From an uncultured bacterium (GTDB lineage Bacteria > Krumholzibacteriota > Krumholzibacteriia > Krumholzibacteriales > Krumholzibacteriaceae): 64,000 nucleotides of DNA. The notes beneath the pieces are model-generated. The model saw only the letters and a list, made by a program, of their open reading frames with translations. It was not told where the DNA came from and made no database searches. The DNA is taken from the NCBI GenBank assembly GCA_964584495.1, contig CAZPAH010000003.1, positions 7,148 to 71,147 on the forward strand. Reading direction: 5' to 3'. Shown in pieces: positions 3,712 to 39,436 of the stretch; within the stretch, counting starts at the first letter, position 1; every line of letters begins with the position of its first letter. The translations under genes and the position numbers were made by a program.

Positions 3712-3844
3712 GGATCCTTCCTAACGTATCTCGCCGCGCGCCCGGCCGAGTAATGATTTGAATTTCCCGTATCGATGTGATAAAATCATCCTCGAAATCA
3801 AGGGACAAAATTTAACACTCCAACAATTCACAGGAGGTAGCGCC

Positions 3845-6271
3845 GTGCAAAAGGGCCGTTTCTTCTTTATTATGCTGTTATTTGTCACTTTCTTTTTTGT
3901 AGTTCCAGCCCAGGCGATCTGGGTCGAAAACGGGAAGGCTGTCTGCACGGCGGTCGAGGGTCAGGGCGATCCGCTCGTAGTCGCCGACGGCAACGGCGGT
4001 TCGATCGTGATCTGGATGGACGACAGAACGTCCTCAATTACAGAGATATACGCTCAACGCGTCGACGAATACGGCCGCGACATGTGGGCATCCGACGGTG
4101 TGCGGGTCTATACGGGTTCTTCATCCGCAATGACGTTCTATGCAACCGGTGACGGAGCTTCCGGCGCAATGATCGCGGTTCTGAGTGTCGAAGATTCCCT
4201 GTACGTGCAGCATCTCTATGCCGACGGCACAACGTGGAGCTCGCCTCAAGGCGCTCTCGTCTGCAACTTTGTTATGCCGGTGTTCGACCCTGAATATGTA
4301 TCGATAACTCAAGGCGGCGGTGGGGCGATCATCACCTGGTTCGATCCCCGTTCGTTCCCCGATTTGAACATATACGCCCAGCGCGTGGACGCCGCAGGGA
4401 ATATCAAATGGGCGGTTAATGGAGTGCCGGTCACCTCGGCCGCGAGCTTCCAGTTGTCGCCCTGCTGCGCGCAGGATCAAAGCGGAGGCGCTATCATCGC
4501 GTGGGCCGACGATCGAAGTGGCAACAGGGATATCTATGCTCAGCGGATCGATTCAACCGGCACGGTCCTCTGGACGATCGACGGGGTACCGGTATGCACC
4601 GAGACAAGCACGCAGCAGAAACCGTGTATTATTTCGGACGGAGCCGGAGGCGTTATCATCTCTTGGGAAGATTCGAGGTTGTCTTCATATGGGGATATCT
4701 TCCTGCAGAAGCTCAATTCAAGCGGCGCCGCGCAGTGGACGGCCAACGGCGTGGTCGCTACGGCCGCACTCTACAGTCAGACAGAAGCCCGGCTCGTCTC
4801 CGACGGCGATGGAGGAGTGATCCTGACATGGCTTGACGTCAGGAATACGCTTTCTAACACCGATATCTATGCCCAGCGTTTGGATGCAGCCGGCAACGTC
4901 CTCTGGGAGACCGACGGTACGGCTATCTGTACGGCCGACAATGTACAGGGATACCCCGGAATCGCTGAAGACGGCGATGGGGGCGCGGTTATCGTCTGGA
5001 ACGACAATAGGTATTTGAACGAAGACATCTACGCCCAGCGGATCGGCCCCGACGGCATCGTCATGTGGGAGGAGAATGGCGATTCGGTCTGCACCGGATT
5101 TACCGGTCAACGTTACTCCCCCACGCTCGCATATGCCGGCCGTCGCGGAGTAGTCATCGCCTGGGGGGACGGCAGGAACGGAGAGACGGATATCAATATC
5201 TACGCGCAGGGGGTCGATCTTCAGGGAAAATGGGGGTATCCGTCACCTGTCATACATTCCGTCGAGGATGTTCCCGGAGACCAGGGGGGATACATCGACC
5301 TCTTCTGGTACGCCAGCCTCTGGGAAGATCCTATCTATGACGAGATAACACATTACACGTTGTGGAGGGCCGTCGAGCCGCAGCAGGCGCTGGCCGCCAT
5401 CGAGATGGGCGCCTTGCTGGTAGAGGATCGGGCCGATCCCGTCCCGCGCGGCGACAGCCGCCTGATACGTCGGGTTGTGACCGGGTCGGCGACATACTTC
5501 TGGGAACTGGTCGGCACGCAGCAGGCGTACTGTTTTGAGGCGTACTCGATGACCATCCCGACCCTTTTCGATTCGACAGCCGTTCATCATGCATATCATT
5601 ACTTCCAGGTTCTGGCCCACAGGTCGAACCATGATTACTACTATCTGTCCGGAGTAGACAGCGCCTATTCGGTCGACAACCTCGCCCCGGGTATGCCGGT
5701 CGGGCTTGCCGGCGAGCAGGCGTACGCACCCGAGGGCCTCCAGCTTACCTGGGAACAGAACGGGGAAGACGACCTGGCCGGGTATAACGTCTACCGCGGT
5801 ACGGACGGCGGATTCGTTCCCGGACCGCTCAGCAGGCTGGCAACGACTTCCGAGCCCTTCTTGTTCGACGATGAGTGGAGATGGGACGGCGTTTACTGGT
5901 ACAAGGTAGCCGCGATAGACGTGAACGGAAACGAGGGCGGCTTCGCAACGCTCAGCCCCGGCATGATTACCGGAGAAGACATCCCCTTGCCAGAGGCGAC
6001 CTTTCTCGCGCAGAACTTCCCCAACCCGTTCAACCCGATGACTACGATAGGGTTCGGGCTGAAAGAGAAGGGGCATGTCTCGCTTACCGTATACAACGCC
6101 GCCGGGCAGCTCGTGGCAACGCTCGTCGACGAAACGATGACGGCGGGGAGCCATGAAGCCGAGTGGAACGGCCGCGCCGACGCCGACCGCATCGCTGCAA
6201 GCGGGATTTACTTCTACAGGCTTGTCGCCGATGATTTCGTGCGCACGAGGAAGATGGTGCTGCTTCGCTGA
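3845..6271 (+). CDS. Secreted repeat (beta-propeller-like) protein with T9SS-type C-terminal sorting domain
   Basis: AGGAGG Shine-Dalgarno at 3833-3838 and an in-frame GTG at 3845 give a signal peptide MQKGRFFFIMLLFVTFFFVVPAQA. There are at least 8 copies of a ~50-aa repeat ending DIYAQR(V/I/L)D...G...W, consistent with propeller blades. The C-terminus (FLAQNFPNPFNPMTTIGF...VYNAAGQLVATLVDE...SGIYFYRLVADDF) matches the Por-secretion-tail / FlgD-Ig-like CTD. Confidence 0.6.
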   Translation: MQKGRFFFIMLLFVTFFFVVPAQAIWVENGKAVCTAVEGQGDPLVVADGNGGSIVIWMDDRTSSITEIYAQRVDEYGRDMWASDGVRVYTGSSSAMTFYATGDGASGAMIAVLSVEDSLYVQHLYADGTTWSSPQGALVCNFVMPVFDPEYVSITQGGGGAIITWFDPRSFPDLNIYAQRVDAAGNIKWAVNGVPVTSAASFQLSPCCAQDQSGGAIIAWADDRSGNRDIYAQRIDSTGTVLWTIDGVPVCTETSTQQKPCIISDGAGGVIISWEDSRLSSYGDIFLQKLNSSGAAQWTANGVVATAALYSQTEARLVSDGDGGVILTWLDVRNTLSNTDIYAQRLDAAGNVLWETDGTAICTADNVQGYPGIAEDGDGGAVIVWNDNRYLNEDIYAQRIGPDGIVMWEENGDSVCTGFTGQRYSPTLAYAGRRGVVIAWGDGRNGETDINIYAQGVDLQGKWGYPSPVIHSVEDVPGDQGGYIDLFWYASLWEDPIYDEITHYTLWRAVEPQQALAAIEMGALLVEDRADPVPRGDSRLIRRVVTGSATYFWELVGTQQAYCFEAYSMTIPTLFDSTAVHHAYHYFQVLAHRSNHDYYYLSGVDSAYSVDNLAPGMPVGLAGEQAYAPEGLQLTWEQNGEDDLAGYNVYRGTDGGFVPGPLSRLATTSEPFLFDDEWRWDGVYWYKVAAIDVNGNEGGFATLSPGMITGEDIPLPEATFLAQNFPNPFNPMTTIGFGLKEKGHVSLTVYNAAGQLVATLVDETMTAGSHEAEWNGRADADRIAASGIYFYRLVADDFVRTRKMVLLR

Positions 6272-6335: not shown

Positions 6336-7592
6336 TCATTTCCCAGTTCTGACGGTGCTTCTCTCGGTGGAGAGGATGAGACCCCGGTCCGTGAACGCCG
6401 TGACCCATACCTCGTAATCGATCCCCGGCTCGAGCGATTTGAGGTCTCTCACCGGGATCGATTCTTCCGTCGCTCCGGTCCACAGGGTGTCTCGGTGGAT
6501 GCGGCTATTGGACGCCTCGCTGTAATTCACAACGTATCCCTTTATCGAATCGTTCTCGACCCTGAACTTCCATAGGATGTCGCCTCCGTCCCTGCACAGG
6601 GTCGCCCCGCCTTCCTCCTCCCACCGCAGGCATTCAAGGACCGGTTTCGGTCCCGACAAGGCCGCCCGCTCTTCTTCACCGGCCTTCGGCGGGGATTGAT
6701 CCTCGGAGAGCTTGACGAACGAGATTATCAGAACGATAAGAAGGGTTACGGCCGCGGCGAAGATTTTCATCCTGCCGTGCCCGGTCTTTTTGATCTTCAC
6801 CGCGGGGGCAGCCTCGAAGGAAGGCCATTCTCCGAAAGAGGATACAACGGCGGAGATATTGTCGGTGGAACCGTTCGTGTAGGCCCACTGGGTTATCACG
6901 TCCGCCGCCGTCTCCGGCGAATCGGATCGCGATATCAACGACAGGAGCGATCCCGAGATATCGCCGATCTTGTCCACGATAAGGCCGTCGGAGCAGAGCA
7001 TCAGGATATCGCCCTCCTTCAGGGTGAACCGGCCCCCCTGCGAAGGATAGATATCGGCTTCGTCCCCGCCGCCCGAGAGGGAGCGGGTCAGAGCGTTGCT
7101 GATCTTCTCGAGCATCGCCGCGTCGGTATCTTCGTGGAGAAAACTGTCGCGGTACTCCTGCACGAAGGAATGGTCTTTCGTGAGCTGCGTTATCTCCATG
7201 CCCGATATCAGGTATGTCCGGCTGTCGCCGATATTTCCCACTACATACTGGTCCCCGGTCCCCAGGACGATCGTGAGGGTCGTGCCCATCTTGCTCAGCT
7301 CGGGCTTATCCTTGGATTCCTCCTTGATTCGTTCCTGGGAAAGGCGCACGATGCCGCGTATCTCGTCCTGCAGCGCCTCGGGCCGGGGTGAAGAGGCGAA
7401 CGCCCTGAACCGCTCGCGGCAGATCTGGATGACAAGCCGGCTCGCCACCTCTCCGCCGCCCATTCCTCCCATGCCGTCGGCCACCGCCAGGATGAAGGCA
7501 TCGCCCTCCTGCTCGTGGCATATCCTGTCCTGGTTGTAATCTCTCCGACCCTGAAGCGATTTTCCGGCAAATTTCATTCGACCAGGTCCCAT
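6336..7592 (-). CDS. PP2C-family Ser/Thr phosphatase with a TM helix and extracytoplasmic C-terminal domain
   Basis: N-terminal LAVADGMGGMGGGEVAS plus later LCSDGL and GSTDNIS motifs identify the PP2C catalytic domain. A hydrophobic segment (IFAAAVTLLIVLIISFV) is followed by a ~130-aa C-terminal domain. The gene is divergent from the PAAR gene. Confidence 0.75.
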   Translation of the reverse strand: MGPGRMKFAGKSLQGRRDYNQDRICHEQEGDAFILAVADGMGGMGGGEVASRLVIQICRERFRAFASSPRPEALQDEIRGIVRLSQERIKEESKDKPELSKMGTTLTIVLGTGDQYVVGNIGDSRTYLISGMEITQLTKDHSFVQEYRDSFLHEDTDAAMLEKISNALTRSLSGGGDEADIYPSQGGRFTLKEGDILMLCSDGLIVDKIGDISGSLLSLISRSDSPETAADVITQWAYTNGSTDNISAVVSSFGEWPSFEAAPAVKIKKTGHGRMKIFAAAVTLLIVLIISFVKLSEDQSPPKAGEEERAALSGPKPVLECLRWEEEGGATLCRDGGDILWKFRVENDSIKGYVVNYSEASNSRIHRDTLWTGATEESIPVRDLKSLEPGIDYEVWVTAFTDRGLILSTERSTVRTGK

Positions 7593-7759: not shown

Positions 7760-7789
7760 TTGACTTATTCCGCCGGGGGACAGTATAAT
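7760..7789 (+). promoter_or_regulatory. Candidate sigma70-type promoter upstream of the PAAR gene (TTGACT-18 nt-TATAAT)
   Basis: TTGACT at 7760-7765 and TATAAT at 7784-7789 with 18-nt spacing, about 32 nt upstream of the ATG at 7822. This is a sequence match only; if the organism belongs to the FCB group its promoter consensus may differ. Confidence 0.25.
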
Positions 7790-7821: not shown

Positions 7822-8970
7822 ATGGGCAAACCAGCCGCACGAGCCACGGACACGGCCAATACATGTAACGACCCGACCGATATGCCGGTCGGCAAGGTCA
7901 TTGCGGTGGGCACTGTTTTTATAAACAAGCTGCCCGCCGCGAAGCAGGGGGACCAGGTCGTCGGGGTCGATACCCATATCATAATGATCCCGACGCCGGG
8001 CGGACCGGTTCCCACGCCCCTTCCCCACCCGTTCGCCGGGATGCTCGACAACGGTCTCTCATCCTCCGTCAAGATAATGGGCATGCCGGCGGCCACCGTG
8101 GACAGCATGGCGTCGAATATGCCCCCTCACATCCCTCAGGGAGGACCGTTCCAGAAGCCGCCCACCAACAAGGCGAAGATAATAATGGGGAGCGCCAATG
8201 TATTCATAGGCAACGGAGGCGGAGGCGGTGGGAGCGGAAAGGGCGGCGGGAAGAAGAAGGCGAAGGCCACCGCCCAGGCGGCCGACAGCGTCGAGTCGCA
8301 TACACTGAACGTCAAATTCGAGGACAAGGGGGGAAAGCCGGTCACCGGCGCGAAATATCTCGTCAAGGGGCCCGACGGCAAGGAGAGCGAGGGGTTCCTC
8401 GCCGGGCAGGTCGAGAGGCAGGGGGTCGCCGAGGGCTCTCACGAGATCAAGCTCAGCGCCGTCACGAAGGCATCCTGGTCGACCGATAGGGCGGAGGTCG
8501 GCGACAAGGTGAAGCTCCAGGTGGAAACGACCGGAGTCGAATCGGGCGAGAAGGCGGTGCTGAGGATATTCATCAAGGATTCCAATTTCGCCGATTACCT
8601 CTTCGAGACGATCGAGACCGAGGTCGGTTCCGACAAGATCGAGGAGGAATGGGAGCTCAAGGTCGACGAGAAGCTGACCGAGGCGCAGGATAAGAAGGAA
8701 GACAAGAATTACTCGAGTCCCAGCTACTACTTCGTCGTCGAGGTTGCGGGATTGAAGCAGCGCTCCGGTTCGCTGATATTCAAGGACTGGCTGGAGCTGG
8801 AGCTGGCCGACGACGAAGGCAAGCCGATCGCCAAGGCCGCATACAAGGTGTACCTGCCCGACGGATCGATAAGGAGCGGCAACCTGGACGACAACGGTTA
8901 CGCGAAGATCGAAAAGGTGCCGCCCGGAAACGTCAAGGTCGAGTACGACATCCGTTCGAGCGAAAAATAA
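7822..8970 (+). CDS. PAAR-repeat spike protein with Gly-rich linker and C-terminal tandem ~50-aa modules
   Basis: Three PAAR-type motifs fall in the first ~130 aa: PAARATD, LPAAKQGD and MPAATVDSM, with conserved GD/H spacing. A poly-Gly/Lys linker (GNGGGGGGSGKGGGKKKAKA) follows, then two copies of a module (xYxVxxPDGxxxxGxL...G...xVEY). The gene opens the co-directional T6SS block. Confidence 0.75.
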   Translation: MGKPAARATDTANTCNDPTDMPVGKVIAVGTVFINKLPAAKQGDQVVGVDTHIIMIPTPGGPVPTPLPHPFAGMLDNGLSSSVKIMGMPAATVDSMASNMPPHIPQGGPFQKPPTNKAKIIMGSANVFIGNGGGGGGSGKGGGKKKAKATAQAADSVESHTLNVKFEDKGGKPVTGAKYLVKGPDGKESEGFLAGQVERQGVAEGSHEIKLSAVTKASWSTDRAEVGDKVKLQVETTGVESGEKAVLRIFIKDSNFADYLFETIETEVGSDKIEEEWELKVDEKLTEAQDKKEDKNYSSPSYYFVVEVAGLKQRSGSLIFKDWLELELADDEGKPIAKAAYKVYLPDGSIRSGNLDDNGYAKIEKVPPGNVKVEYDIRSSEK

Positions 8971-8989
8971 TAGCCGATCGCAATAGGAT

Positions 8990-11900
8990 ATGAGTAAAAA
9001 CAAGGTATCGACCAACAGAAAGACCCGTTTTTCCTGGAGCAGGAGCAAGGTCGATATCATCAAGCTCGATCATTACTTCTTCAACAAGAACAGCGCCCTC
9101 TTCCTGCCGGTGAAGCTTCCCGATTCGGATAAGGCGGACAAGAGCGCCGCCGCGGCCATGGATATTCTCGGCATCAAGTCTCTCGCCGTCGCGTTCACGC
9201 ATTGCGAGGCGGACGGCCGCCTCCGGGTCGTTATCGCCGGTCACGCCGACTCCACAGACGACGGCGGCGTCGCCGACCGGTTCGCGCTCTCCGGGCTGAG
9301 GGCGAAATCGGTATACTACCTTCTCTCGGGGGACAGGAAGAACTGGGCGAAGACGGTTTACGAGAAGCACACGATCGAGGACTACCAGCTCGTTCTCAGG
9401 TATTTTCACCTCAACAAGGGGGTCTACTTCGGCAAGATCAAGGACCAGGTCAAGCCGTTGGACCCCGGCGAGGTGAATAACAGCTGGAATGACGCCACCG
9501 ACAAGGCGACCCGCGAATTGATCGTGGGGTTCAACAACTACGCGAAGGCGAGGAAGGTCGACTCCCTCAAGCTTTCCGTGATGATGAAAACGATCAAGGA
9601 TGATGACGCCAAGCGCTGGCCGGTTGAGCTATGGGAGGCGGTCTTCATCCTCTATGAAAACGCGATCGCCCGCACCCTGAACTTATTGAAGAAGAGCGAG
9701 CTCGAGAGCAAGCGGAAGGATATCCTGAAATTCTGCGACGACAAGAAACCGTTCGTCTCGTGCGGCGAATCTTTTCCCCTGAAGGATCTCGACGATCAGA
9801 AGAAATCGAACTACGATCCGAAGCCGGGCCGGGGCGCCGAGATAATCTTCTTCAACAAGAAATCCCTGCCGGGAAAGAAGATCTCCAAGAAGATGCGGAT
9901 CGTCTGCCCGGCCGACACAGGCAGCGTCCACCCGGCCAAGAAGTGCCCGATATTCTACAAGCACCATATGAAGTCGACGTACATCGATCACCGCAATCTC
10001 GACCTTGTGATCTATCATCTCAAGTTCGTCTACTACGACCGGGTGAAGAACGAGATCGCGCCGGTGCCGGCGGGGCTCGCTATCGAAGCGGGCCGCTGGG
10101 ACGACACCGCCAACGCGAAGGTCGCGATCGACTCGGCCACGGATTTCAACGACGGCGTCTACAGCGTCAAGGTGCCCGACGACGCGACGCGAAAGGATAT
10201 CGCCTTCTGGTTCAAGGCGGTAGATACGGTCGATCCCACGAAGAGGTGGTGGGTCTACACGGACAGCGCCGACGCCGATCCCAAGCTGGTTCTCAAGACG
10301 GATGCCGAGGTCAAGGCACTCGCCGCCGCCGAGAAAATCAAGTACTACGATCTTCCGCGTGAGTGGTCATCCATCAATTACTGGACCCGCTTCGAGAAAT
10401 ACACCGTGGGGGACGAATACAAGAAGATGATGAAAAAAAAGGGATTCAAGCCTTTCGGATCGAAGCAGCAGACCGCCGGGAAGCCCTTGATCTTCTCCCT
10501 GGACGATATCGTCCTGACCGACACCGCCGGACTCCAGAACGTGAGGGACAAGGACGGCACCGGGGCGGCGGTCGCTCTTTCGAAACATTCGAGGGTCACC
10601 CTCCTCTACCCCGACGCGGGCGATGATTTCAATATCAAGATACACAAGCCGATCGCCAAGGAGCCGTATTTCAGCGACGTAAAGGGCGGTTTCGAGGCTA
10701 ACCTTATTCATGACTACTGGGACGACAAGGATGAGAACCTTCACAGGCCGTGCCGGGTTGTAGTCTTCTGCAGCGAGTTCTACGACATATACAACAGGCG
10801 GACCGAATCGTATCCCACCTTCAGGTTCAACAAGGGGAATATTCTCGGCGCCAGGGCGGCCCGCAGGGACGACTCCCACTGCAGCGGGAAGAAATCGATC
10901 AACGGCTGGGATGCCGGCGACAAGGCGAGCGCCTACGCGGCGAAAGACGCGGGGAATTACAGGCTCCACTATCTCCATGACTGGGGCATCCATGACAACA
11001 AGCTGCACAGCGGGCTCATTATATACTGGAGCTGCCGTTATACGGTCGACGCGGGACAGGGCGGCAAAAAGATCGACAAGAAGAACTATATCGAGAAGGG
11101 GATGAAGAACGCGATGGACCGTATCGGCCTGAAGAAGTACCAGCTGGAGAAGCTGACCGGGACCGAGGATATAGTGATAAAGACATTTCCGCTCCTCGAG
11201 GCGAAGCAGGACTACAAGGTGGGATCGAACGAGATAAAGAGGGGCGGGGAGCATATATGCCTGGTAAGCCTGACCGACGACACCCATACGAGCGGGATGG
11301 GATACGATATGGCCAACTTCCGCTCGAGCGCCTACCAGGACGAGCCTGCAAGGGCCAGCGCCAACCCAGCGTTCAACAACACGCAGGATTACGATGGTCA
11401 TACCTACAACTCCCTCACAGGGGCCCACGAGATGGGCCACGCCCTCGGGCTCGACGACGAGTACATCCGCACCGCTTCCTCCGGGGTCGGGCTCGCCCAG
11501 TACGACCAGTACTATCCGGGGGTTCCCTACTCGGGCGACATGCTGACCCTGATGAACAAGAACCGCGGGACGAGGATGCATCATTTCTGGCTCTACGCGA
11601 ACTGGATCAACGACGCATCCGAGAACGGCCAGGTCCTGCACGATTTACTAAAGGGGACGAAGTTCAAGCTGGTCCTGAAGGGCGGGCCCGGCGACCTGTC
11701 GTTCGAGCTGACCCACGACGATTACCGCAATGTCTACAAGCCGGTCTACGAGGACGATGTAGATTACGGGGGCGGGACCCACGGCTACCTCATAGTGTAC
11801 AAGCTGGGGGACGGCGAGTTCGCCAATACACTTAAAGCGAACCAAAAATTCACCGGCATAATGGTCGTAAGGACAAACATCTGTGTCAAGTTCACCAACG

Positions 11901-12313
11901 ATACGTCGAACTGGACGGCTCAGGAAGCCTACGACTGGGTCCAGGCCCTCGACTCCGACCTGAAGCTGATGCTGGGAAACAAGTACTGGCTGAAGCGGGA
12001 CGATCCCGATCATCCTTTCAAGAAGGTTTATCTGTATTTCCTGCCACACTACTCGGTGGCGGACCCGGCCCCGGCCGGCACCCATTACAAGCTCGAGGTG
12101 AAGAGGAACGATAACAACGGGTTCAATCCCGACGGTGCCGATAAGTCGAAGATCGTAGTGGATGACGACGTGGAGAACAAGAAGATCATAAGGCACTTCT
12201 TCGGCAAGTTCGCCGGTCATGCGAATCTGACCAAGCCCGAGCTTGCGAAGATCAAGGATTGGATCGGTCACGCCGCCAGGGCGAACGTGGCATTTACGAT
12301 TGAGGACCTGTGA
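8990..12313 (+). CDS. Large putative T6SS effector with N-terminal OmpA-like domain and C-terminal zincin metallopeptidase motif
   Basis: Near the N-terminus, VVIAGHADSTDDGGVADRFALSGLRAKSVYYLL matches the OmpA_C-like core (GHTDxxG...LSxxRA). In the C-terminal third, TGAHEMGHALGLDDEY gives HExxHxxGxxD, the zincin pattern with Asp as third ligand seen in the snapalysin/metzincin-like group. It lies immediately downstream of the PAAR gene with a 19-bp gap. Confidence 0.6.
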   Translation: MSKNKVSTNRKTRFSWSRSKVDIIKLDHYFFNKNSALFLPVKLPDSDKADKSAAAAMDILGIKSLAVAFTHCEADGRLRVVIAGHADSTDDGGVADRFALSGLRAKSVYYLLSGDRKNWAKTVYEKHTIEDYQLVLRYFHLNKGVYFGKIKDQVKPLDPGEVNNSWNDATDKATRELIVGFNNYAKARKVDSLKLSVMMKTIKDDDAKRWPVELWEAVFILYENAIARTLNLLKKSELESKRKDILKFCDDKKPFVSCGESFPLKDLDDQKKSNYDPKPGRGAEIIFFNKKSLPGKKISKKMRIVCPADTGSVHPAKKCPIFYKHHMKSTYIDHRNLDLVIYHLKFVYYDRVKNEIAPVPAGLAIEAGRWDDTANAKVAIDSATDFNDGVYSVKVPDDATRKDIAFWFKAVDTVDPTKRWWVYTDSADADPKLVLKTDAEVKALAAAEKIKYYDLPREWSSINYWTRFEKYTVGDEYKKMMKKKGFKPFGSKQQTAGKPLIFSLDDIVLTDTAGLQNVRDKDGTGAAVALSKHSRVTLLYPDAGDDFNIKIHKPIAKEPYFSDVKGGFEANLIHDYWDDKDENLHRPCRVVVFCSEFYDIYNRRTESYPTFRFNKGNILGARAARRDDSHCSGKKSINGWDAGDKASAYAAKDAGNYRLHYLHDWGIHDNKLHSGLIIYWSCRYTVDAGQGGKKIDKKNYIEKGMKNAMDRIGLKKYQLEKLTGTEDIVIKTFPLLEAKQDYKVGSNEIKRGGEHICLVSLTDDTHTSGMGYDMANFRSSAYQDEPARASANPAFNNTQDYDGHTYNSLTGAHEMGHALGLDDEYIRTASSGVGLAQYDQYYPGVPYSGDMLTLMNKNRGTRMHHFWLYANWINDASENGQVLHDLLKGTKFKLVLKGGPGDLSFELTHDDYRNVYKPVYEDDVDYGGGTHGYLIVYKLGDGEFANTLKANQKFTGIMVVRTNICVKFTNDTSNWTAQEAYDWVQALDSDLKLMLGNKYWLKRDDPDHPFKKVYLYFLPHYSVADPAPAGTHYKLEVKRNDNNGFNPDGADKSKIVVDDDVENKKIIRHFFGKFAGHANLTKPELAKIKDWIGHAARANVAFTIEDL

Positions 12314-13518
12314 TGAGGGTGTCACCAAACAGGCCGCTGCTGCTGTGCATGATGCTGTTATCTTTGACCGCCGCCTGCCGCTCGCGGGCGGGGAACGAGC
12401 CGGGCGCTGCTCTTATCGCAGGTGAAGGAGAAATAGAAATGAATGAAGGCTACTCGACTGATTTCGCCGATTTCCGGCGGTCCTCTTTCCAGAACACTAC
12501 GGTCGATTGCGGGGGGGAGATCCTCTGGGCCTCGGACTACCGGGCCGGGGGGGCGCCGCCGCGGGCGCTCTACCTTTTCGGCGGAAAGCCGCTGGTTGTC
12601 TCGGGCGTCGGTTTCGACCTTTATTCCGGTGATGGGACCTTTCTCTGGCACCAGGACATGAACGAAGGGTCGCCGATCGGATTGACCGACAGGTTGATAT
12701 ATTTCCATGACGACAGGTTCCGTCTTTCCGCGGTGAACGCGGCCAACGAGCGCGCTATGGAGAACGGCTATTTCCCGGGCCCGATCAATCTCGACTATCC
12801 CCTTTCGCTTCTTTGGGCCGGCAAGCTCGACTACCTCTACGTCGTGCAGTTCACCGGGGGCGCCGAGGAGCTGCCGCCCAAGGTGATGGTGAAAAGGACC
12901 GTGTACGGCAAGCGGCTTGCCAAATGGACCTACGAGGTCGAGGGAAGACAGCTCCTGCCGCCCCTCTACCTGCCCGAGGTCGAGCAGGTCGTCGTTTTCG
13001 CGGATATGATCCATTTCGTCGACGCGGTCGACGGAAACGAGATATCGAAGAGAAAGTACCCGCTGGAGGGGGCCGTAAGCGCGAGCGCCGATCGCACAGG
13101 GACGGTCTATCTCTGCGGCAGATCGAAGGAGATCCTATCGCTGGCCGCTTTCGCCGCAAATGGAGATCCGCTCTGGATATGGGAGGATGAAGAGGGATTC
13201 GGCATGCCGTCGGTGCAGCCTCCCGCCATCGGAGAGGATAGCAGCATCTATATCCTCGCCGGGAACGATATAGTCGCGGTCAGGGACGGAGGAAAATCAT
13301 GGTCGTTCCGCGTCGAGGACGACCGGCCCTCCTGCTGCACCGCCTTCGCCGGCGGCAGGCTTCTGGCCGCCGCGGGCAGCCGGCTTATCGGGATCGACCT
13401 TGAAGGGAAAGAATTGTTCGACATCGAATTTGATGATACGATATTCGCGCCGCCGGTGGGCGCCGGCGACGGGACAGTCTTTCTTCTGACCGCCGGAAAG
13501 CTCTTGAGAGTGCGCTGA
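12310..13518 (+). CDS. Lipoprotein, beta-propeller (PQQ/BamB-like repeats); putative cognate immunity protein
   Basis: Its start overlaps the effector stop (ATGA at 12310-12313), indicating translational coupling. The signal peptide with lipobox LSLTAAC predicts periplasmic lipoprotein localisation. Repeated W/G-rich blade-like segments are present. Confidence 0.5.
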   Translation: MMRVSPNRPLLLCMMLLSLTAACRSRAGNEPGAALIAGEGEIEMNEGYSTDFADFRRSSFQNTTVDCGGEILWASDYRAGGAPPRALYLFGGKPLVVSGVGFDLYSGDGTFLWHQDMNEGSPIGLTDRLIYFHDDRFRLSAVNAANERAMENGYFPGPINLDYPLSLLWAGKLDYLYVVQFTGGAEELPPKVMVKRTVYGKRLAKWTYEVEGRQLLPPLYLPEVEQVVVFADMIHFVDAVDGNEISKRKYPLEGAVSASADRTGTVYLCGRSKEILSLAAFAANGDPLWIWEDEEGFGMPSVQPPAIGEDSSIYILAGNDIVAVRDGGKSWSFRVEDDRPSCCTAFAGGRLLAAAGSRLIGIDLEGKELFDIEFDDTIFAPPVGAGDGTVFLLTAGKLLRVR

Positions 13519-13561: not shown

Positions 13562-14008
13562 ATGAAAAAAGACGAGACGATGTTCGATATCAAGCTGCCC
13601 CAGGGCTGGGAGGATCAGACGGTGTATTTTTTCCGGGGGCCGTCGATAGACGACAGGGAGCACAAGGTCATGATGACGATCGACCGCCTCCCCCAGCAGG
13701 ACGAGATCTCGAGGTTCGCCGCCGTCAGGACGAGACCGATCGTCGAAAACCTCCAGGGAGTTGAAGTTCTCAAGGACGAGGAGACGACCCCGGCCGGGTG
13801 CTATCCCTCCTACGAGTTCGTCTACAGGTGGATCCCGGCCGACGGCATGAAGATCGTCAAGAAGCATATCTATGTTCTTCACGGCAGGTTCGGATACTGC
13901 TTCGAGGCGGAGTTCACGAAGAAATCGTACAAGATGCTGGGAGGGCAGCTTAAAAAGCTGGTGGAGAGCCTTCTGCCCGGGACATACGAGCCGGTGGACG
14001 ACCGTTAG
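13562..14008 (+). CDS. DUF1795 / Eag-like T6SS effector adaptor (chaperone) candidate
   Basis: The protein is 148 aa. Its N-terminal MFDIKLPQGWEDQTVYFFRGP matches the hallmark L-P-x-G-W-x-D-x-S/T-x-x-F of the DUF1795/DcrB-like EagR/EagT family. The size is typical for that family. Confidence 0.45.
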   Translation: MKKDETMFDIKLPQGWEDQTVYFFRGPSIDDREHKVMMTIDRLPQQDEISRFAAVRTRPIVENLQGVEVLKDEETTPAGCYPSYEFVYRWIPADGMKIVKKHIYVLHGRFGYCFEAEFTKKSYKMLGGQLKKLVESLLPGTYEPVDDR

Positions 14009-14030: not shown

Positions 14031-14939
14031 ATGCCAGAATCGAAATTCAACAAGCAGACCGATTCAGAGGAGAAGGTCAAGCTCGACTCGGCGCTGATCT
14101 ACGCCGCGTGGAAGGACGGAGCGGCTTATACCGGCGCCCCGGCGGGGTTCGTCGTAGGAACGGTCTTCGTCGGCAACGGAGCCAAGATAGAGATAGCGGG
14201 AAAGAGCGAAGGGGGAAAATCGCTCGGGAAGATCAAGGATACGATAGACAGCAACCGTTATGCGGGCGAGTTCGAGATACCGGACGATACCGACCCGGGG
14301 GACGAGATCTATTTCACCGTGAAGATTTCGAAGAACGGGATAGACGAGGAGTCGAACCGCATACCGGTCTTCCAGGGGCCGTTGATCACCAACATGCAGT
14401 GGAGCGAGCAGGAGGCGAGGCGGGGGGACGTTCTCAAGCTGACCGCCGACGTGGAGAAGGTGGCCAACGGTACGGAGGTTCTCGTCACGATATACGAGTA
14501 CGACGAGGACGGGGCGCACGACAAGATCGCCGAGATACCGGCCGAGATAAAAGATTTCAAGCTCGAGGTGGAATGGGAGTACGAGTACCACGAGGACACA
14601 GACGAGATACCCACGACGGCGGAGATGGGAAGGTACGGGGGCTCCTACAATCCCCCCGAGTATTTCTTCACCGTGAAGTGCGGCGGGTTCGAGGCGGGGA
14701 AGGAACGGGAATCGGGGCTTTTGACCTTCAAGGACTATATAGATATCGTTCTTCGCGACGCGGCGGGCAATCCGGCCGCCGACGCGAGGTATATCGTTCA
14801 TCTTCCCGACGGATCGCAGAGGGAAGGGCAGCTCGACGCCGGCGGGCGAGCGCGGGAGGAAGGGATCGCGCCGGGGCATATCGAGGTCGAGTTTCCCGAT
14901 CTGCGACAGGTCGACCCGCTCAGCGGGGAGGAGGAGTAG
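14031..14939 (+). CDS. Hypothetical protein sharing a C-terminal ~80-aa module with the PAAR protein
   Basis: I chose the in-frame ATG at 14031 (MPESKFNK) inside ORF 13872..14939, because the upstream part overlaps the adaptor gene. The C-terminus EYFFTVKCGGFEAG...LLTFKDYIDIVLRDAAGNPAADARYIVHLPDGSQREGQLDAGG...HIEVEF aligns position-by-position with the PAAR C-terminus SYYFVVEVAGLKQRSGSLIFKDWLELELADDEGKPIAKAAYKVYLPDGSIRSGNLDDNG...VKVEY. Confidence 0.45.
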   Translation: MPESKFNKQTDSEEKVKLDSALIYAAWKDGAAYTGAPAGFVVGTVFVGNGAKIEIAGKSEGGKSLGKIKDTIDSNRYAGEFEIPDDTDPGDEIYFTVKISKNGIDEESNRIPVFQGPLITNMQWSEQEARRGDVLKLTADVEKVANGTEVLVTIYEYDEDGAHDKIAEIPAEIKDFKLEVEWEYEYHEDTDEIPTTAEMGRYGGSYNPPEYFFTVKCGGFEAGKERESGLLTFKDYIDIVLRDAAGNPAADARYIVHLPDGSQREGQLDAGGRAREEGIAPGHIEVEFPDLRQVDPLSGEEE

Positions 14940-14942
14940 ATC

Positions 14943-16595
14943 TTGCCGGGATTCGAGTACACTATAAGAAGAAGGGACACCCTCACGGCGATCGCCCGCC
15001 GCTACCGGGTGGAGGGCGGATGGCGGGCCATATGGAACGACGAGCATAACGAGGACCTGAGAAACCGCAGGCACAGCCCGAGAAGGCTCTTCGCCGGCGA
15101 CAGGGTCTACATTCCGGGGGCGAGCGGCAACAGGGGAGCGGCGCCCAGCGGGGGGACGGCGGTATTCACCGTTCCGCCCCCGTACCAGATACGCGCCGAA
15201 GACGGATTTTACCCTCCCCCCACCGAGATACCGAGGGGGGGGACGGTCAGGCTGCGCGCCGTTCATGACGATGGAGAGGAAGGCGACTGGGCCTGGGCCA
15301 CCACGAGCACGAAGATCACCCTCTCCGATGAGATGACGGACACCGTCACGGTAACGGCCGGCAACAACGCAAGCGCCGGGGAATCGGCGGAAGTCGTGCA
15401 GGTGATGTTCACCCCGGCCGCAGAAGAATCGTTGCCGCCGGTCGAAGCCGGGATTACCGTGGTAGGAGTCGCTTTCAGGCCTTCGGCGAGCCAGGGCTAC
15501 GGCTTCGACGGGATGGGCGCCAATGCGGGCGACCGGACGCCCCGCAGAAGCACGCCCCACATATCGGTGAAGAAGAATACCAGGACGAGGGTGAGGGTGG
15601 TTGTAACGGGCGGGGTCGATTCCGGGGTCCTTCACTTCACAACCGACGACAATACGACCGCCGAACCCGTGGTCGAGGGAGCGCCTTCGGCCTCCTTCAC
15701 CCTTTTCATAGACGGCAAAGAGAAGAACAAGGCCAATACTCTGATCCACGCACGGCTGGACAGCGATACGGGCCCGATTTGCGCCAGCCTGGCGGTGAAC
15801 GTCTACAGGGAGATGTCATATACGGCCAAGGTGGCCAAGGTGTGGGACAGCACCTCCGCCTCGACGGCCCTCTCTCGTCCGAACTTCAGCGTTAACACGA
15901 CCCAGACGGCCCTCAGGGGATATTACAAGCAGGCGGTGACGACGATCAGCCTTACCGATTACAGCAGCACCGGCGGTGTCGTCGACGTCCATTTCGATCC
16001 GGGGGGGGCGGGCGCGCTCGTTCTTGAAGCGGGGCGCACCTCGGCCGGCCAGCAGGCGGTCCAGGCCGCCCTGACCGGGACCGGCAAGAAGATCGTGATC
16101 GTGAAAAAGCTTTCCTGGCTCTTCAAGCTGGGCTCCGCCGCCGCGATCGGTGATAACAGGATAACGATGGCCTCGTTCATCAACGAGACGCTCATGGGGT
16201 ACATTACGGCCGGAACGTACCAATTCGGCGGGCCGGGCAATTACGAGAATATTACGGTCACCGCGACGAACCGGACCACGAAAGTGGTGACCCTTTCGGG
16301 CACCTTGACCAAGGCGCATCCGGCGACCGAAGGGATATGGTGGCCCCTCGGCGGATTGAGCGGCAATCCCGCATATGTCCAGGAAGGGACCGATACCGAG
16401 GCGAAGGTAAACGAGGTGATCGGCCACGAGTTCGGCCATGAGCTGATGAGGCTGCTCGATCTGGATCACCGGCAGAGCCTTATGTATTTCTCCAACTCGA
16501 GAACGGGCCAGGAGATAAGGTTCAAATCATTGCAGAGGCACTATCCGGACCCGGGGGGTAACGAGAGCCAGTGGGAGCTTATCAGCCGGACCTAG
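14943..16595 (+). CDS. LysM-domain protein with C-terminal HExxH zinc-peptidase-like motif (second putative effector or wall-acting protein)
   Basis: The N-terminus YTIRRRDTLTAIARRYRVEGGW...GDRVYIPG reads as a LysM fold. Near the C-terminus EVIGHEFGHELMRLLDLDH gives HExxH plus downstream D/H. The co-directional, coding-dense context favours this frame over the 561-aa antisense ORF. Confidence 0.55.
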   Translation: MPGFEYTIRRRDTLTAIARRYRVEGGWRAIWNDEHNEDLRNRRHSPRRLFAGDRVYIPGASGNRGAAPSGGTAVFTVPPPYQIRAEDGFYPPPTEIPRGGTVRLRAVHDDGEEGDWAWATTSTKITLSDEMTDTVTVTAGNNASAGESAEVVQVMFTPAAEESLPPVEAGITVVGVAFRPSASQGYGFDGMGANAGDRTPRRSTPHISVKKNTRTRVRVVVTGGVDSGVLHFTTDDNTTAEPVVEGAPSASFTLFIDGKEKNKANTLIHARLDSDTGPICASLAVNVYREMSYTAKVAKVWDSTSASTALSRPNFSVNTTQTALRGYYKQAVTTISLTDYSSTGGVVDVHFDPGGAGALVLEAGRTSAGQQAVQAALTGTGKKIVIVKKLSWLFKLGSAAAIGDNRITMASFINETLMGYITAGTYQFGGPGNYENITVTATNRTTKVVTLSGTLTKAHPATEGIWWPLGGLSGNPAYVQEGTDTEAKVNEVIGHEFGHELMRLLDLDHRQSLMYFSNSRTGQEIRFKSLQRHYPDPGGNESQWELISRT

Positions 16596-17617
16596 GCGCG
16601 CGTGGGCGTAAGGGCCGCGCGGGCACTAAAATAAATATCGCGGTTATAATATTGCTGACGGCCGTTTTTTCGGCGGTCGCCGCCGGCAGCTGCGGATGCC
16701 GGTCGGGGAAGGAGACTGACGAGTTGACGAAAATACAGGAACTGATCGAGAGTTTCAGATCGGGCGTCGAGTTCGACGGAGATGTCGAGCCCTATGTCAC
16801 GGGCGGCAAGCCGGATATGGAGGCGGTAGGCCGGTTCCGGACGGCGCTCGAAAGGGAGGATGAGCCGGTCCGGGAGCAGGTATGCCGTCTGCTCGGAGCG
16901 CTAGGCAAGAGGGTCGATCCCCTCTACGAGAAAGGGGGCGGAATGATCCGCGACAGGACGATTGTCGGCATCCTAGTGAACGACGGCCTGTCGAGGAAGG
17001 GCCCGGCGAGGGATATCTGCCTCGATCTTCTCCAGTATGCCGTGCCGGGGCATGTGCTGAAGGATTTCGGCAGGCAGATGGCCGACAATCTCAAGATGTA
17101 CCCAGACGCGACGCTGCTCCTGGTGATAGCCAAGGCGAAGGCCCCAGAGGCGAAGGATGCTGTCGATTCGCTTATGAAGATCCCAGGCTGGGCCGGGGAG
17201 ACGGAGACGAGGATCGCCGCGGCGGCCCTCGGGGACCGGGAGATAGAGCGATCGTTCATAGAACGTTTTCGCGCCGCTCAGGAACCGGCGGAAAAGGCCG
17301 AACTTGCGAAGCTGCTTGGCCTTATCGGGACGGAATCGGCCCTCAGGGAAGTGGCCGCCGCGATGCGGTCCGACATGATCATAGAGATGTCCGGGGTCTC
17401 CTCGCGATCGATCAGGATATATTTCATCGAGGCCCTCTCGTACAATTTTCCAGAGGAAACCTTTCTGTACGATAACGCGGTCAACAGCGACGAGGATTAC
17501 GCGAAGGTGGAAAAATTCTGCGAGGAGAGGTTCGGCGTGAAATGGAAAAAAGAGCGCCCCCCGTTCCTATGGATACAGGGGTATCCGACCGAGCCGCAAC
17601 CCGATATTACCCCTTGA
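16571..17617 (+). CDS. HEAT/ARM-like repeat lipoprotein (possible immunity or accessory protein)
   Basis: A basic n-region is followed by the hydrophobic INIAVIILLTAVFSAVAAGSCGC with a lipobox Cys. The remainder is predicted alpha-helical with repeats. It overlaps the upstream stop by 25 nt. Confidence 0.45.
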   Translation: MGAYQPDLGARGRKGRAGTKINIAVIILLTAVFSAVAAGSCGCRSGKETDELTKIQELIESFRSGVEFDGDVEPYVTGGKPDMEAVGRFRTALEREDEPVREQVCRLLGALGKRVDPLYEKGGGMIRDRTIVGILVNDGLSRKGPARDICLDLLQYAVPGHVLKDFGRQMADNLKMYPDATLLLVIAKAKAPEAKDAVDSLMKIPGWAGETETRIAAAALGDREIERSFIERFRAAQEPAEKAELAKLLGLIGTESALREVAAAMRSDMIIEMSGVSSRSIRIYFIEALSYNFPEETFLYDNAVNSDEDYAKVEKFCEERFGVKWKKERPPFLWIQGYPTEPQPDITP

Positions 17618-29012: not shown

Positions 29013-29942
29013 ATGGGTGAAAGTATAACTTCGTACATTGAGGATCTTTTCAAGTATATCGACGGCTACGAGAGCAACTACGCCTCCTTCGAGGCGGAGG
29101 CTTTCTTCCAGACGTACAACGGGATAGGAGCCGTTTTCCAGGCCCTTCGGCAGCAGCGCGAGAAGGCGGTCGAGGTCGACAGGGTCTTCCTGGAGAAGAT
29201 CAAGCTGGGACCGCTCAACAGCTCCGATTTCAGGCAGATAACGATCCAGGTGCTAATATCGTTTTTCGAATCGGTCGCCGACACCGACGGGCAGTCCAAC
29301 AAGGCCTACCTGTACTGCCGGGAATTCCGCAGCATAAAGAGGGACGTCACCTACTTCGAGACATACCTGATGCCCCTGCTGATGGGCGCAGGCAGCCTCA
29401 ACAACAACTTCAAGCTGAACAAATTCTTCCTGCAGGAGATAGGAAGGTTCATCAGCAATTTCAGCAGCGGGTGGAGCGGCGATCTGCCCTTCGAGGAATT
29501 CAAGGCGATGCCGGATCACAGGAAGCTGCTCGAGCTCTACCTGAGGCGTTCCAAGCTGGGCGAGAACCTATGCGCCGATCGCAACTCGCTCGAGTTTCAC
29601 ATGCGCAGCGTAGGCGTTTTCGAGAAGCTGAGGCAGTCCAATCCCCTCTTCGAGCGTTACCTGAAGGAGTGGAACTACCTGGACGAGGTGAGCCTGATCG
29701 ACAGGATCAAGGATGCGTTCGCCGTATTCTGGGGGAAATTGAAGGGACTTTTCTCTAGCTTCAAGTACCTCCGCCTCGCCATGACGCAGAGGTTTTCCGC
29801 CTACCTGTTCTACGGCCTATTGATAGTCATCTTCCTTCTCCTGGCGTTCATAGTGCCTTCCAGGTGGAACAGCTACACGAGGGATAAACAGGTTGAATTC
29901 GAAGCGCGGGTCGAGAAGACCCGGAGTGAGATAGGAAAGTAG
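29013..29942 (+). CDS. Tail-anchored membrane protein (cytoplasmic ~270-aa domain plus single C-terminal TM); TssL/DotU-like topology
   Basis: A single hydrophobic helix YLFYGLLIVIFLLLAFIVPSRW sits near the C-terminus, followed by a ~40-aa tail. It lies immediately after tssK and before the GTPase-TM gene. I see no recognisable sequence family, so the call rests on topology and position. Confidence 0.35.
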   Translation: MGESITSYIEDLFKYIDGYESNYASFEAEAFFQTYNGIGAVFQALRQQREKAVEVDRVFLEKIKLGPLNSSDFRQITIQVLISFFESVADTDGQSNKAYLYCREFRSIKRDVTYFETYLMPLLMGAGSLNNNFKLNKFFLQEIGRFISNFSSGWSGDLPFEEFKAMPDHRKLLELYLRRSKLGENLCADRNSLEFHMRSVGVFEKLRQSNPLFERYLKEWNYLDEVSLIDRIKDAFAVFWGKLKGLFSSFKYLRLAMTQRFSAYLFYGLLIVIFLLLAFIVPSRWNSYTRDKQVEFEARVEKTRSEIGK

Positions 29943-29959
29943 ACCGGCGGGAATAGACT

Positions 29960-32170: not shown

Positions 32171-32199
32171 CGGTTTAATAGTCGACGAAAGGAAATACG

Positions 32200-32709
32200 A
32201 TGAGAAAGAGGAATCTGCTGGTCGTCGCCGTTCTGCTCGTGTCGCTCCTGCCGGCGGGAGCCTTCGCCGGCAAGGTTGTCCTGCCGGAGGAGACGGCGAT
32301 CAAGGTCAAATTCGATCCCGCGATAAAGATCAATTCCGGCAAGCTTCAGCCGGGGTTGACCCTGACGATCTTCCTCGCCCAGGACGTGAAGATCGGGGGG
32401 GCTACGATCATCGAGGCCGGGGCCGAGGGTACCGCGAAGGTGGAGGAGATAGTTCCCGCCTCCAGGCCGGGCGATCCCGGAAAGATCAAGATCTCGTTCG
32501 TCGATCTCGGCACGAAAGGAAAGTACCACGCCGCCGATAACGCGAGGATCAAGCTGGGCGGCTTCGTGGAGAACGAGGGGAAGGGCAGGAAGCTCCTCTC
32601 CTGGGTCTTTGTCCTCGGGCTCTTCATCAAGGGCTCGCAGGGCGAGATCGATAACATGCTCGAATATCCCGCCATCATAAAAGAGACGACGGTGCTTGAG
32701 ACGTCCTGA
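32200..32709 (+). CDS. Small secreted (periplasmic) protein, last gene of the + strand T6SS block
   Basis: Signal peptide MRKRNLLVVAVLLVSLLPAGAFA, with no lipobox Cys. It is 169 aa and predicted beta-rich. Confidence 0.4.
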   Translation: MRKRNLLVVAVLLVSLLPAGAFAGKVVLPEETAIKVKFDPAIKINSGKLQPGLTLTIFLAQDVKIGGATIIEAGAEGTAKVEEIVPASRPGDPGKIKISFVDLGTKGKYHAADNARIKLGGFVENEGKGRKLLSWVFVLGLFIKGSQGEIDNMLEYPAIIKETTVLETS

Positions 32710-39216: not shown

Positions 39217-39436
39217 TGAGCGGTTCCCGTTATGGAAACTGAAGTTCCCCGCAAACGCGGACCCTCCCCGAGCCCGTACGGCGGCGGGCGAGGGGTACAA
39301 CTGCATGCGGGATCTTTTTATCCCGTCGAAATCTACCGCAGAGGCGCGGCCAAGTCAATCCTGAATCTTCCGGCACGCAGGGCCGCCCGGCCTCTGAACG
39401 GCCTCGGTCCTTCCAGGGTCGAAGGTTGGATGATCC

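Follow-up and report, generated by a model that had tools for sequence, protein, structure and literature searches.

A type VI secretion system (T6SS) locus is carried by a 64,000-nucleotide stretch of DNA from an uncultured bacterium of the Krumholzibacteriaceae (assembly GCA_964584495.1, contig CAZPAH010000003.1, positions 7,148 to 71,147 of the forward strand; this whole stretch is referred to below as the window, and positions are counted from its first nucleotide). The three genes at the head of this locus, at positions 7822 to 13518, most likely form a T6SS toxin-plus-antidote cassette that comprises a spike tip, a predicted wall-binding zinc protease and a lipoprotein that probably neutralises it. 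The protease is a member of a large and widespread family that is absent from Pfam and NCBIfam. The anatomy of the module, meaning its domains and characteristic residues as described here, can be stated with very high confidence.

Anatomy of the three-gene module

Three open reading frames had been proposed in an earlier interpretation of this DNA from its letters alone (the sequence-only reading), and all of them are present where it placed them. They lie on the forward strand, as do all features described in this section. The first (7822..8970) encodes a PAAR spike-tip protein of 382 amino acids and opens a same-strand run that includes ClpV, TssB, TssC, Hcp, VgrG, TssE, TssF, TssG and TssK downstream, which bears out the placement of the module at the head of a T6SS block. 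Its product matches the Pfam PAAR_motif model (PF05488) with an expectation value (E) of 3.4e-10 and 40.4 bits, above the gathering score of 27, and the three predicted PAAR-type motifs are found as PAAR at residue 4, PAAK at residue 38 and PAAT at residue 89. This PAAR domain (residues 1 to ~130) is followed by the glycine-rich linker that had also been predicted, a Gly/Lys-rich segment read from the sequence as GNGGGGGGSGKGGGKKKAK (residues 130-148; 8209-8265), and then by a C-terminal extension of ~230 residues. The extension contains two transthyretin/prealbumin-like repeats (~residues 160-215 and 320-378), with weak Pfam matches to SpaA and CarboxypepD_reg at residues 330-374, and is a candidate adaptor for the docking of cargo.

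Exactly 19 nucleotides separate the PAAR gene from the ATG of the second gene, as claimed. This gene (8990..12313) encodes the cargo effector candidate, a protein of 1107 amino acids that lacks a signal peptide or membrane segment, with no 19-residue window reaching a Kyte-Doolittle value of 1.6. Its homologues are alike in this respect, since none of 71 long homologues has a convincing signal peptide (one is borderline, a marginal call on a hydrophobicity threshold). The AlphaFold2 model of the protein has a predicted local distance difference test score (pLDDT) of 88 and a predicted template-modelling score (pTM) of 0.76. At the 3' end the second gene overlaps the third; the overlap had been foreseen, but the ATGA start proposed for it is not there. 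The sequence reads CTG TGA TGA GG, and the partner gene starts either at the GTG at 12310 (GTGA, a 4-nt overlap) or at the ATG at 12313 (TGATG, a 1-nt overlap).

The second protein contains a predicted zinc endopeptidase domain of the metzincin type (~residues 655-890; 10952..11659). The HExxHxxGxxD motif from which a metallopeptidase had been suspected is real: the active-site motif HEMGHALGLDDEY (residues 813-825; 11426-11464) begins with HEMGHALGLDD at residues 813-823, which fits the metzincin consensus HEXXHXXGXX(H/D). When homologues from related loci that cover each site were aligned with hmmalign (the source of the residue counts given for this protein), H813, E814, H817, D823 and Y825 were kept in 74/74, G820 in 70/74 and M855 (11552-11554) in 73/73. 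The model shows the fold of a metzincin catalytic domain, with a five-stranded sheet and backing, active-site and C-terminal helices, and its elements follow one another in the order of a backing helix at residues 694-713, the β-sheet, the active-site helix at 810-818, M855 as the putative Met-turn, and the C-terminal helix at 863-876 that is expected to come after it. The closest structural metzincins are CpaA, ADAMs and snapalysin. Snapalysin, the M7 enzyme, has the HExxHxxGxxD form of the consensus together with a conserved Met further downstream (PMC3890501). Likeness to snapalysin, which had been raised as a check on the peptidase, holds for the fold and not for the sequence: a profile of the effector reaches snapalysin only at E 0.96 and myroilysin at E 0.088 among Protein Data Bank (PDB) sequences, and there is no match to Pfam M7. 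The window protein gives no Pfam or NCBIfam peptidase match at all, VanY included, one of 27 homologues matches Reprolysin_4 (E 1.3e-4), and a phmmer search of PDB with the peptidase segment returned chance matches only, such as truncated haemoglobins. Because sequence similarity to solved metzincins is negligible, we place the predicted peptidase in a new family of the metzincin type, outside M7.

The N-terminal part of the protein is an OmpA_C-like domain that is divided in two by a helical insertion of ~130 residues. Its first half (residues 19-113; 9044..9328) has the signature GH(A/T)D...LSxxRA and includes D87 and R104; the insertion, delimited by the secondary structure of the model, spans residues 116-244 (9335..9721); and the second half (9752..9982), identified from alignment blocks and centred on residues 255-290, carries CGESFP...GRGAEIIFF, the counterpart of GxGExxP...NRRVE, together with a Cys/His cluster. 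The OmpA_C-like core IAGHADSTDDGG...LSGLRA of the sequence-only reading is upheld by its motif and by the OmpA/Pal/MotB fold that the model shows for this domain, but the match to Pfam PF00691 falls short of the threshold (E 0.028, 15.2 against 27.2 bits). At the level of the family the signature is canonical (GHTDTSG....NF.LS.LRA ... CGESFPI....NYRSQ.NRRVEILFF), and PF00691 is matched at E <= 0.01 by 20 of the 27 homologues, the best with E 2.9e-9. D87 is kept in 70/73 homologues and R104 in 73/73, and we take them to be the diaminopimelate-binding Asp/Arg pair, by the roles that these residues have in the A. baumannii OmpA and Pal structures. In some relatives, such as the homologue at locus L081 (E 3e-7), a PG_binding_1 domain occupies the position of the insertion, and the insertion of the window copy gives no PG_binding_1 match. 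The residues of the cluster, C258, C306, H314 and C319, are each kept in 74-75 of 75 homologues and may form a structural metal site. From the fold and the binding residues we infer that the OmpA-like module binds peptidoglycan.

Two further regions complete the protein. The β-rich middle region (residues 339-610; 10004..10819), delimited by alignment and secondary structure, contains the invariant motifs KYYDLPxxWSSxNYWTR and PLxFSLDDIVL and has no significant fold or family match. The C-terminal α/β domain (residues 891-1107; 11660..12310), delimited by the secondary structure of the model, has only Y937, G940, F968, P1019 and V1037 as nearly invariant residues, and because no invariant polar residue occurs among them its role is probably one of binding or packing and not of catalysis. 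The metzincin site would therefore be the only evident catalytic centre of the protein.

The third gene (12310..13518) encodes the partner, a protein of 401-402 amino acids in which a lipoprotein-type signal and a disordered linker of ~40 residues precede an eight-bladed PQQ/BamB-like β-propeller. The description of this protein as a β-propeller is well supported by Foldseek matches to YxaL (E 1.2e-14, template-modelling (TM) score 0.61-0.65) and BamB (E 3.9e-11), and its lipobox-like N-terminus MRVSPNRPLLLCMMLLSLTAAC with Cys22 makes it a putative lipoprotein. The lipobox region itself, MRVSPNRPLLLCMMLLSLTAA-C22, is non-canonical in having Thr at position -3 (judged without a dedicated predictor), and many homologues of the partner have (S/G/A)C(R/G/Q) at this position. 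The AlphaFold2 model of the partner (pLDDT 70.7, pTM 0.73) is an all-β repeat built from a three-sequence alignment, because the homologue search gave only two proteins, and the match to Pfam PQQ_2 (E 7.4e-6) lies just below the cut-off, at 26.2 against 27.6 bits.

A widespread family with interchangeable parts

Full-length homologues of the 1107-residue protein (n=27; 26-66% identity) occur in metagenome-assembled genomes (MAGs) of Krumholzibacteria and Zixibacteria, the closest being 64-66% identical and found in two MAGs, one of which is annotated as Krumholzibacteria. An exhaustive profile search shows that the family is much larger, with 828 clusters (formed at 50% identity) at E <= 1e-30 and 1388 at E <= 1e-10; a renewed search of the 5.8-billion-protein index with the effector alignment added no new members. 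At least 110 species-representative genomes carry the family, and the lineages concerned include Ignavibacteriota, Zixibacteria, Krumholzibacteriota, Fibrobacterota, GN15, Desulfobacterales, Victivallales and Gemmatimonadota. The earlier statement that the domain combination belongs to no named family has been borne out. A scan of the window protein against Pfam and NCBIfam gave no match at normal thresholds, the sub-threshold OmpA match described above being the only one in Pfam; ~800 of its 1107 residues are covered by no model of either database. The whole protein has no match among PDB sequences, and neither the family nor any T6SS effector from its phyla is described in the literature searched.

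The setting of the gene is strongly conserved. In 76/83 loci the gene immediately upstream, on the same strand, encodes a PAAR homologue, and in 21 of the related loci this gene is itself directly preceded by VgrG, giving the order VgrG, PAAR, effector. The position of the module relative to ClpV-TssBC varies, these genes being on the same strand, divergent or absent, and core T6SS genes are missing altogether from 16 of the 40 loci in which both flanks extend for at least 8 kb. Such loci look like auxiliary effector clusters. Single MAGs may carry two divergent copies of the effector gene (loci L017 and L054 in one, L061 and L069 in another).

The protein itself is assembled in different ways. 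In Desulfobacterales relatives a PG_binding_1 domain (E 1.3e-14) takes the place of the OmpA-like region, while in other relatives this region is replaced by transthyretin-like domains, or CBM_5_12 (chitin-binding), TIG or PG_binding_1 domains are added. Conversely, the N-terminal 490 residues, which comprise the OmpA-like carrier and the first β-domain, are fused elsewhere to a calcineurin-like phosphoesterase, again in proteins that lack signal peptides. The distribution of these domains among the variants with an exchanged carrier or warhead (P0098, P0115, P0124, P0128 and P0132, at loci L084-L088, and P0112, P0114 and P0139) suggests a polymorphic family in which carriers and warheads are interchangeable. 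A protein that lacks a signal, has swappable carriers and warheads and is encoded after PAAR resembles a cargo effector, and on these comparisons it is likely that the 1107-residue protein is carried by the T6SS in this way.

Proposed mechanism and competing explanations

The events envisaged are as follows. The PAAR protein would cap the VgrG spike, and its transthyretin-like extension would dock the signal-less 1107-residue protein, which firing of the system would deliver into the periplasm of a neighbouring diderm cell. There the OmpA-like module would bind peptidoglycan, as the PG_binding_1-like insertion would in relatives, and would hold the snapalysin-like metzincin at the wall, where E814 would serve as the general base of its predicted HExxHxxGxxDxY zinc site and M855 would form the Met-turn. 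The substrates would most likely be wall-located or wall-attached proteins, for example lipoproteins that tether the envelope and OmpA/Pal-type linkers, and their cleavage would damage the envelope. The producer and its kin would be protected by the co-translated periplasmic propeller lipoprotein, which would block the protease. This scheme of cargo effector and immunity protein, taken as a whole and as stated, is judged somewhat better than even.

The choice of substrate follows from what is known of the enzymes. To our knowledge, all characterised metzincins cleave ordinary L-peptide bonds and none is a wall hydrolase, and the known wall endopeptidases use other folds, namely M23, M15/LAS and NlpC/P60. 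By this analogy, therefore, wall-associated proteins (lipoproteins and OmpA/Pal-type tethers) are more likely substrates than stem peptides. The idea of a peptidoglycan-directed protease accordingly survives only in part: the binding residues and the exchange of one wall-binding domain for another support a protein that is anchored to peptidoglycan, but not one that cleaves it.

Several observations count against the proposed scheme or weaken parts of it. The window copy of the OmpA-like domain is degraded, NRRVE having become GRGAE, and this is why its Pfam score is below the threshold. Around 13 of 59 distinct partners, in Ignavibacteria, Desulfobacterales and Fibrobacterota lineages, have no signal peptide. 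In about four lineages (loci L017-L019, L024, L030, L043, L058, L062 and L074) the partner begins at the conserved motif of the mature protein, M..YSRFFAN..., and the sequence before it is too short for an earlier start; in such lineages periplasmic immunity cannot work as stated. The architectural variants sampled include no fusions to PAAR, VgrG or Rhs. Conservation of the module is very broad, often at a fixed place beside ClpV-TssBC, and an accessory component of the secretion system could look the same; OmpA-like domains are, moreover, known T6SS anchors (TagL, TssL1). Neither the PAAR protein nor the effector offers a hydrophobic helix as a client for the DUF1795 protein encoded downstream (described below). 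Finally, all organisms with the module are uncultured and represented by MAGs.

In one alternative, the 1107-residue protein is a secreted effector but its immunity, if any, is encoded elsewhere, and the propeller could be a cofactor secreted with it, an adaptor for its loading, a chaperone of a pro-enzyme or a subunit that recognises the target. The signal-less partners speak for this, as do the nature of β-propellers as generic protein-binding scaffolds and the extra genes that stand between the propeller and DUF1795 genes in many loci. Nevertheless, a hydrophobic signal is found in ~44/59 distinct partners, many with a Cys in the lipobox position, whereas the effector never has one, so that the two proteins start from different compartments, and a cytoplasmic loading role is therefore ruled out in most lineages. 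A homologous partner is the very next gene in 60/61 loci, and it is retained where another N-terminal carrier is present (L043, L058, L062, L063) and absent in 4/4 contexts examined in which a Metallophos domain replaces the metzincin half. It follows that the propeller goes with the metzincin half and not with the carrier, as would be expected of an inhibitor or immunity protein. A scan of metagenomes for orphan partner genes, made with a narrower alignment, found two contigs of ~3 kb only.

The evolution of the partner points the same way. It diverges about twice as fast as the effector (median normalised score to the window proteins 0.17 against 0.40 bits per residue), and a genome that carries two modules has effectors sharing 35% identity but partners that are mutually unrecognisable (E 0.17). 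The invariant or nearly invariant residues in 18 diverse partners are Gly, Pro and Trp only, with no conserved polar residues, which marks the partner as a binding protein rather than an enzyme. Fast evolution and a lack of conserved polar residues are the usual signature of immunity proteins. Judged on these comparisons, it is moderately probable that the partner is the immunity protein of the effector, and a different role for a propeller that accompanies a genuine secreted effector is unlikely.

A second alternative removes the toxin altogether. The 1107-residue protein could be an accessory or structural factor of its own T6SS, a wall anchor combined with a remodelling enzyme in the manner of TagL plus TagX or MltE, and the propeller its outer-membrane partner. 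The order effector, propeller, DUF1795 ... ClpV-TssB-TssC is indeed conserved between Krumholzibacteria and Zixibacteria, the T6SS block contains no Pfam-recognisable TssJ, TssL or TssM, and roles of this kind have been described for TagL and TagX (PMC13584744). However, TagL and TagX are inner-membrane proteins with three and two transmembrane helices, respectively (PMC13584744), whereas the effector and its homologues have neither a transmembrane helix nor a signal peptide and could not reach their own periplasm through Sec. Their gene follows PAAR or VgrG-PAAR and not the genes of the membrane complex; the modules that lie far from core genes (16/40) and the genomes with two divergent copies are hard to reconcile with a structural part, as is the recombination of either half of the protein, N- or C-terminal, with other domains for catalysis or binding. 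The locus, in addition, already offers a C-tail-anchored protein and a GTPase-transmembrane protein as candidates for parts of the membrane complex (see below). A housekeeping role in the secretion system is thus distinctly unlikely. The narrower candidate of a TagL/TagX-like membrane protein was rejected, as there are no transmembrane segments and the peptidase is a metzincin and not a VanY/LAS-type L,D-endopeptidase such as TagX.

It is very unlikely that the metzincin is something other than the toxic activity, either a self-processing or releasing peptidase or a companion to an OmpA-like module that is toxic by sequestering wall precursors ('Tox-OmpA'). Zincin domains do act as releasing peptidases in some polymorphic toxins, and C-terminal OmpA domains have been proposed as non-catalytic toxins in PVC-type systems (PMC3482391). 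In the present family, however, residues 891-1107, which follow the metzincin, have no invariant polar or catalytic residues and so offer no evident toxin to release, the OmpA-like domain is N-terminal and gives way to PG_binding_1 or other domains in proteins that retain the metzincin core, and the partner follows the metzincin half. Least probable of all is a non-bacterial or extracellular target (fungal or algal walls, host proteins or matrix) for a protein released into the medium, which the chitin-binding CBM_5_12 and TIG domains of some relatives and the extracellular nature of CpaA, ADAMs and snapalysin might suggest, but which is at odds with the OmpA-like or PG_binding_1 modules of the window protein and most relatives, their intact diaminopimelate-binding residues, and the envelope lipoprotein beside the effector in nearly every locus, which such a target would render needless.

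Neighbouring genes, comparable systems and significance

Upstream of the module, a candidate sigma-70-type promoter, TTGACT-18-TATAAT (7760..7789, + strand; 11/12 positions, a match to consensus only), lies ~33 nt before the PAAR start in a divergent intergenic region; the total of promoter-type matches across the region is not above shuffled expectation. Immediately downstream of the partner gene, a protein of 148 amino acids without a signal peptide (13562..14008, + strand) is a putative member of the DUF1795/DcrB family (Pfam DcrB, E 2.1e-5), scoring 25.1 against the 27.2 bits required by PF08786 and matching PDB EagT6/PA0094 weakly (E 1.4). Its gene is found downstream of the PAAR-effector module in most loci, and at locus L087 it directly follows the phosphoesterase variant, which shares only the N-terminal carrier with the effector. 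This protein may accompany the module as an Eag-type chaperone or adaptor. Eag chaperones normally shield the transmembrane helices of their clients.

A second, parallel module follows at 14031-17617, again with a candidate adaptor, a putative wall-binding HExxH protein and a putative lipoprotein. It includes a PAAR-less paralogue of the PAAR C-terminal extension (302 residues, 31% identity, E 2e-30), a 550-residue protein (14943-16595) that matches LysM weakly and has the C-terminal motif HEFGHELMRLLDLDH...SLMYF (HEFGH...SLMYF), and, as the last gene, a lipoprotein-like HEAT-repeat protein of 348 residues. Relatives of the genes for the 550- and 348-residue proteins are found mainly in Krumholzibacteria-type loci, with one Zixibacteria locus for the former, and there is no detectable homology between the 550-residue HExxH protein and the 1107-residue effector. 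This module may encode a wall-binding HExxH effector with its own immunity protein, and the repetition of the same logic supports the interpretation of the first module as an effector module.

Within the T6SS block, the region at 29013-32709 encodes a 309-residue protein with a single C-terminal transmembrane helix (a TssL-like topology), a 736-residue protein with an N-terminal DO-GTPase2-like domain and a transmembrane segment in its middle, and a secreted protein of 169 residues; these genes may specify a divergent membrane complex of this T6SS lineage. The block is flanked by genes for a PP2C phosphatase with a C-terminal fn3 domain (6336-7592, - strand) and a Ser/Thr kinase with a PEGA domain (37831-39306, - strand), the former recurring beside the module in many related loci. 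By analogy with PpkA/PppA, the pair suggests a control circuit based on threonine phosphorylation. Further upstream, an 837-residue protein (3758-6271) has a C-terminal sorting domain of the type IX secretion system (Por_Secre_tail/FlgD_ig), and two CsgG-like/tetratricopeptide-repeat lipoproteins are encoded beyond the T6SS block (35361-37777, - strand). Both features fit an organism of the FCB group.

The functionally closest system to the module is that of the metallopeptidase effectors VgrG2b (C-terminal domain) and Tpe1, with their periplasmic or lipoprotein immunity proteins PA0261/Tpi, in P. aeruginosa and A. baylyi (PMC6899460). Those effectors are T6SS HExxH zinc peptidases that are toxic in the periplasm, an activity that is predicted here, and they have a periplasm-exposed immunity protein encoded immediately downstream, which in some species is a lipoprotein (PMC6899460). 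The substrates suspected for VgrG2b are envelope lipoproteins or wall enzymes (PMC6899460). Unlike VgrG2b, the peptidase of the present module is a separate cargo encoded after PAAR and not a VgrG fusion, it is combined with peptidoglycan-binding modules and ~500 residues of additional β-domains, its third zinc ligand is Asp within a metzincin-type fold, and the immunity candidate is a 400-residue β-propeller. No homology to the VgrG2b C-terminal/Tpe1 system was found (no direct comparison with PA0261 was run).

In snapalysin a Tyr stands two residues after the Asp, as Y825 does here. This Streptomyces small neutral protease (MEROPS M7; PDB 4hx3/1c7k) also shares the HExxHxxGxxD motif and a downstream Met (PMC3890501), and it has a dedicated proteinaceous inhibitor, sermetstatin. 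It is, however, a stand-alone Sec-secreted enzyme of 130 residues, whereas the domain described here is part of a multidomain T6SS-associated protein of 1107 residues; the Met lies 32 residues after the Asp here and ~10 in snapalysin, and sequence similarity is negligible (profile E about 1). The OmpA/Pal/MotB domains, including those of TagL and TssL1 (PF00691; PDB 3td3, 4g4v, 5m38, 4b62), show the same signatures at the family level, with the binding Asp/Arg kept. In contrast to OmpA, Pal and TagL, the domain is split by an insertion of ~130 residues and stands first in a protein that has neither a signal nor a membrane anchor.

The propeller has the same eight-bladed PQQ-like fold as BamB and YxaL (Foldseek E 1e-14 to 4e-11, TM score ~0.6), and it resembles BamB in its putative N-terminal lipoprotein signal and flexible linker. 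It differs from both in having only 12-20% identity to them, below the cut-offs of Pfam and NCBIfam, in its very fast divergence and in its strict linkage to the metzincin gene and not to BAM genes. A pairing of metzincin and lipoprotein is also reported from Listeria, where a phage-derived secreted metzincin is encoded beside a lipoprotein predicted to inhibit it, and the pair affects sensitivity to cell-wall-targeting agents (PMC8235301). The Listeria pair differs in coming from a Gram-positive organism and in being Sec-secreted and not part of a T6SS, with an inhibitor that is TIMP-like and not a propeller (PMC8235301).

Genes for PAAR, an effector and an immunity protein are in themselves no surprise as the opening of a T6SS locus; what is new, within a known kind of system, is the family. 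What stands out is the size and spread of this unannotated family, its peptidoglycan anchors, the metzincin warhead with Asp as the third ligand, and the propeller as a candidate inhibitor. In its boldest form, which is rather unlikely as it stands, the 1107-residue protein would be the founding example of a large, unrecognised polymorphic effector superfamily of the FCB group and other environmental bacteria (at least 828 clusters), with a signal-less peptidoglycan-binding carrier and interchangeable metzincin or calcineurin-like phosphoesterase warheads, in which the metzincin would cleave wall stems, cross-links or the protein tethers between outer membrane and wall, and the propeller lipoprotein would be a new type of metzincin inhibitor. 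We know of no metzincin for which cleavage of wall stems, cross-links or such tethers has been shown. The invariant active site and the compact pair of protease and inhibitor make the scheme directly testable in E. coli, and the effector family could supply several missing models to Pfam and MEROPS. Knowledge of the T6SS rests almost entirely on Proteobacteria and Bacteroides. If the interpretation is correct, the module would bring with it an effector family that is both new and very common, a new means of directing a protease to the envelope by built-in peptidoglycan anchors, and a new fold class of protease-inhibiting immunity protein.

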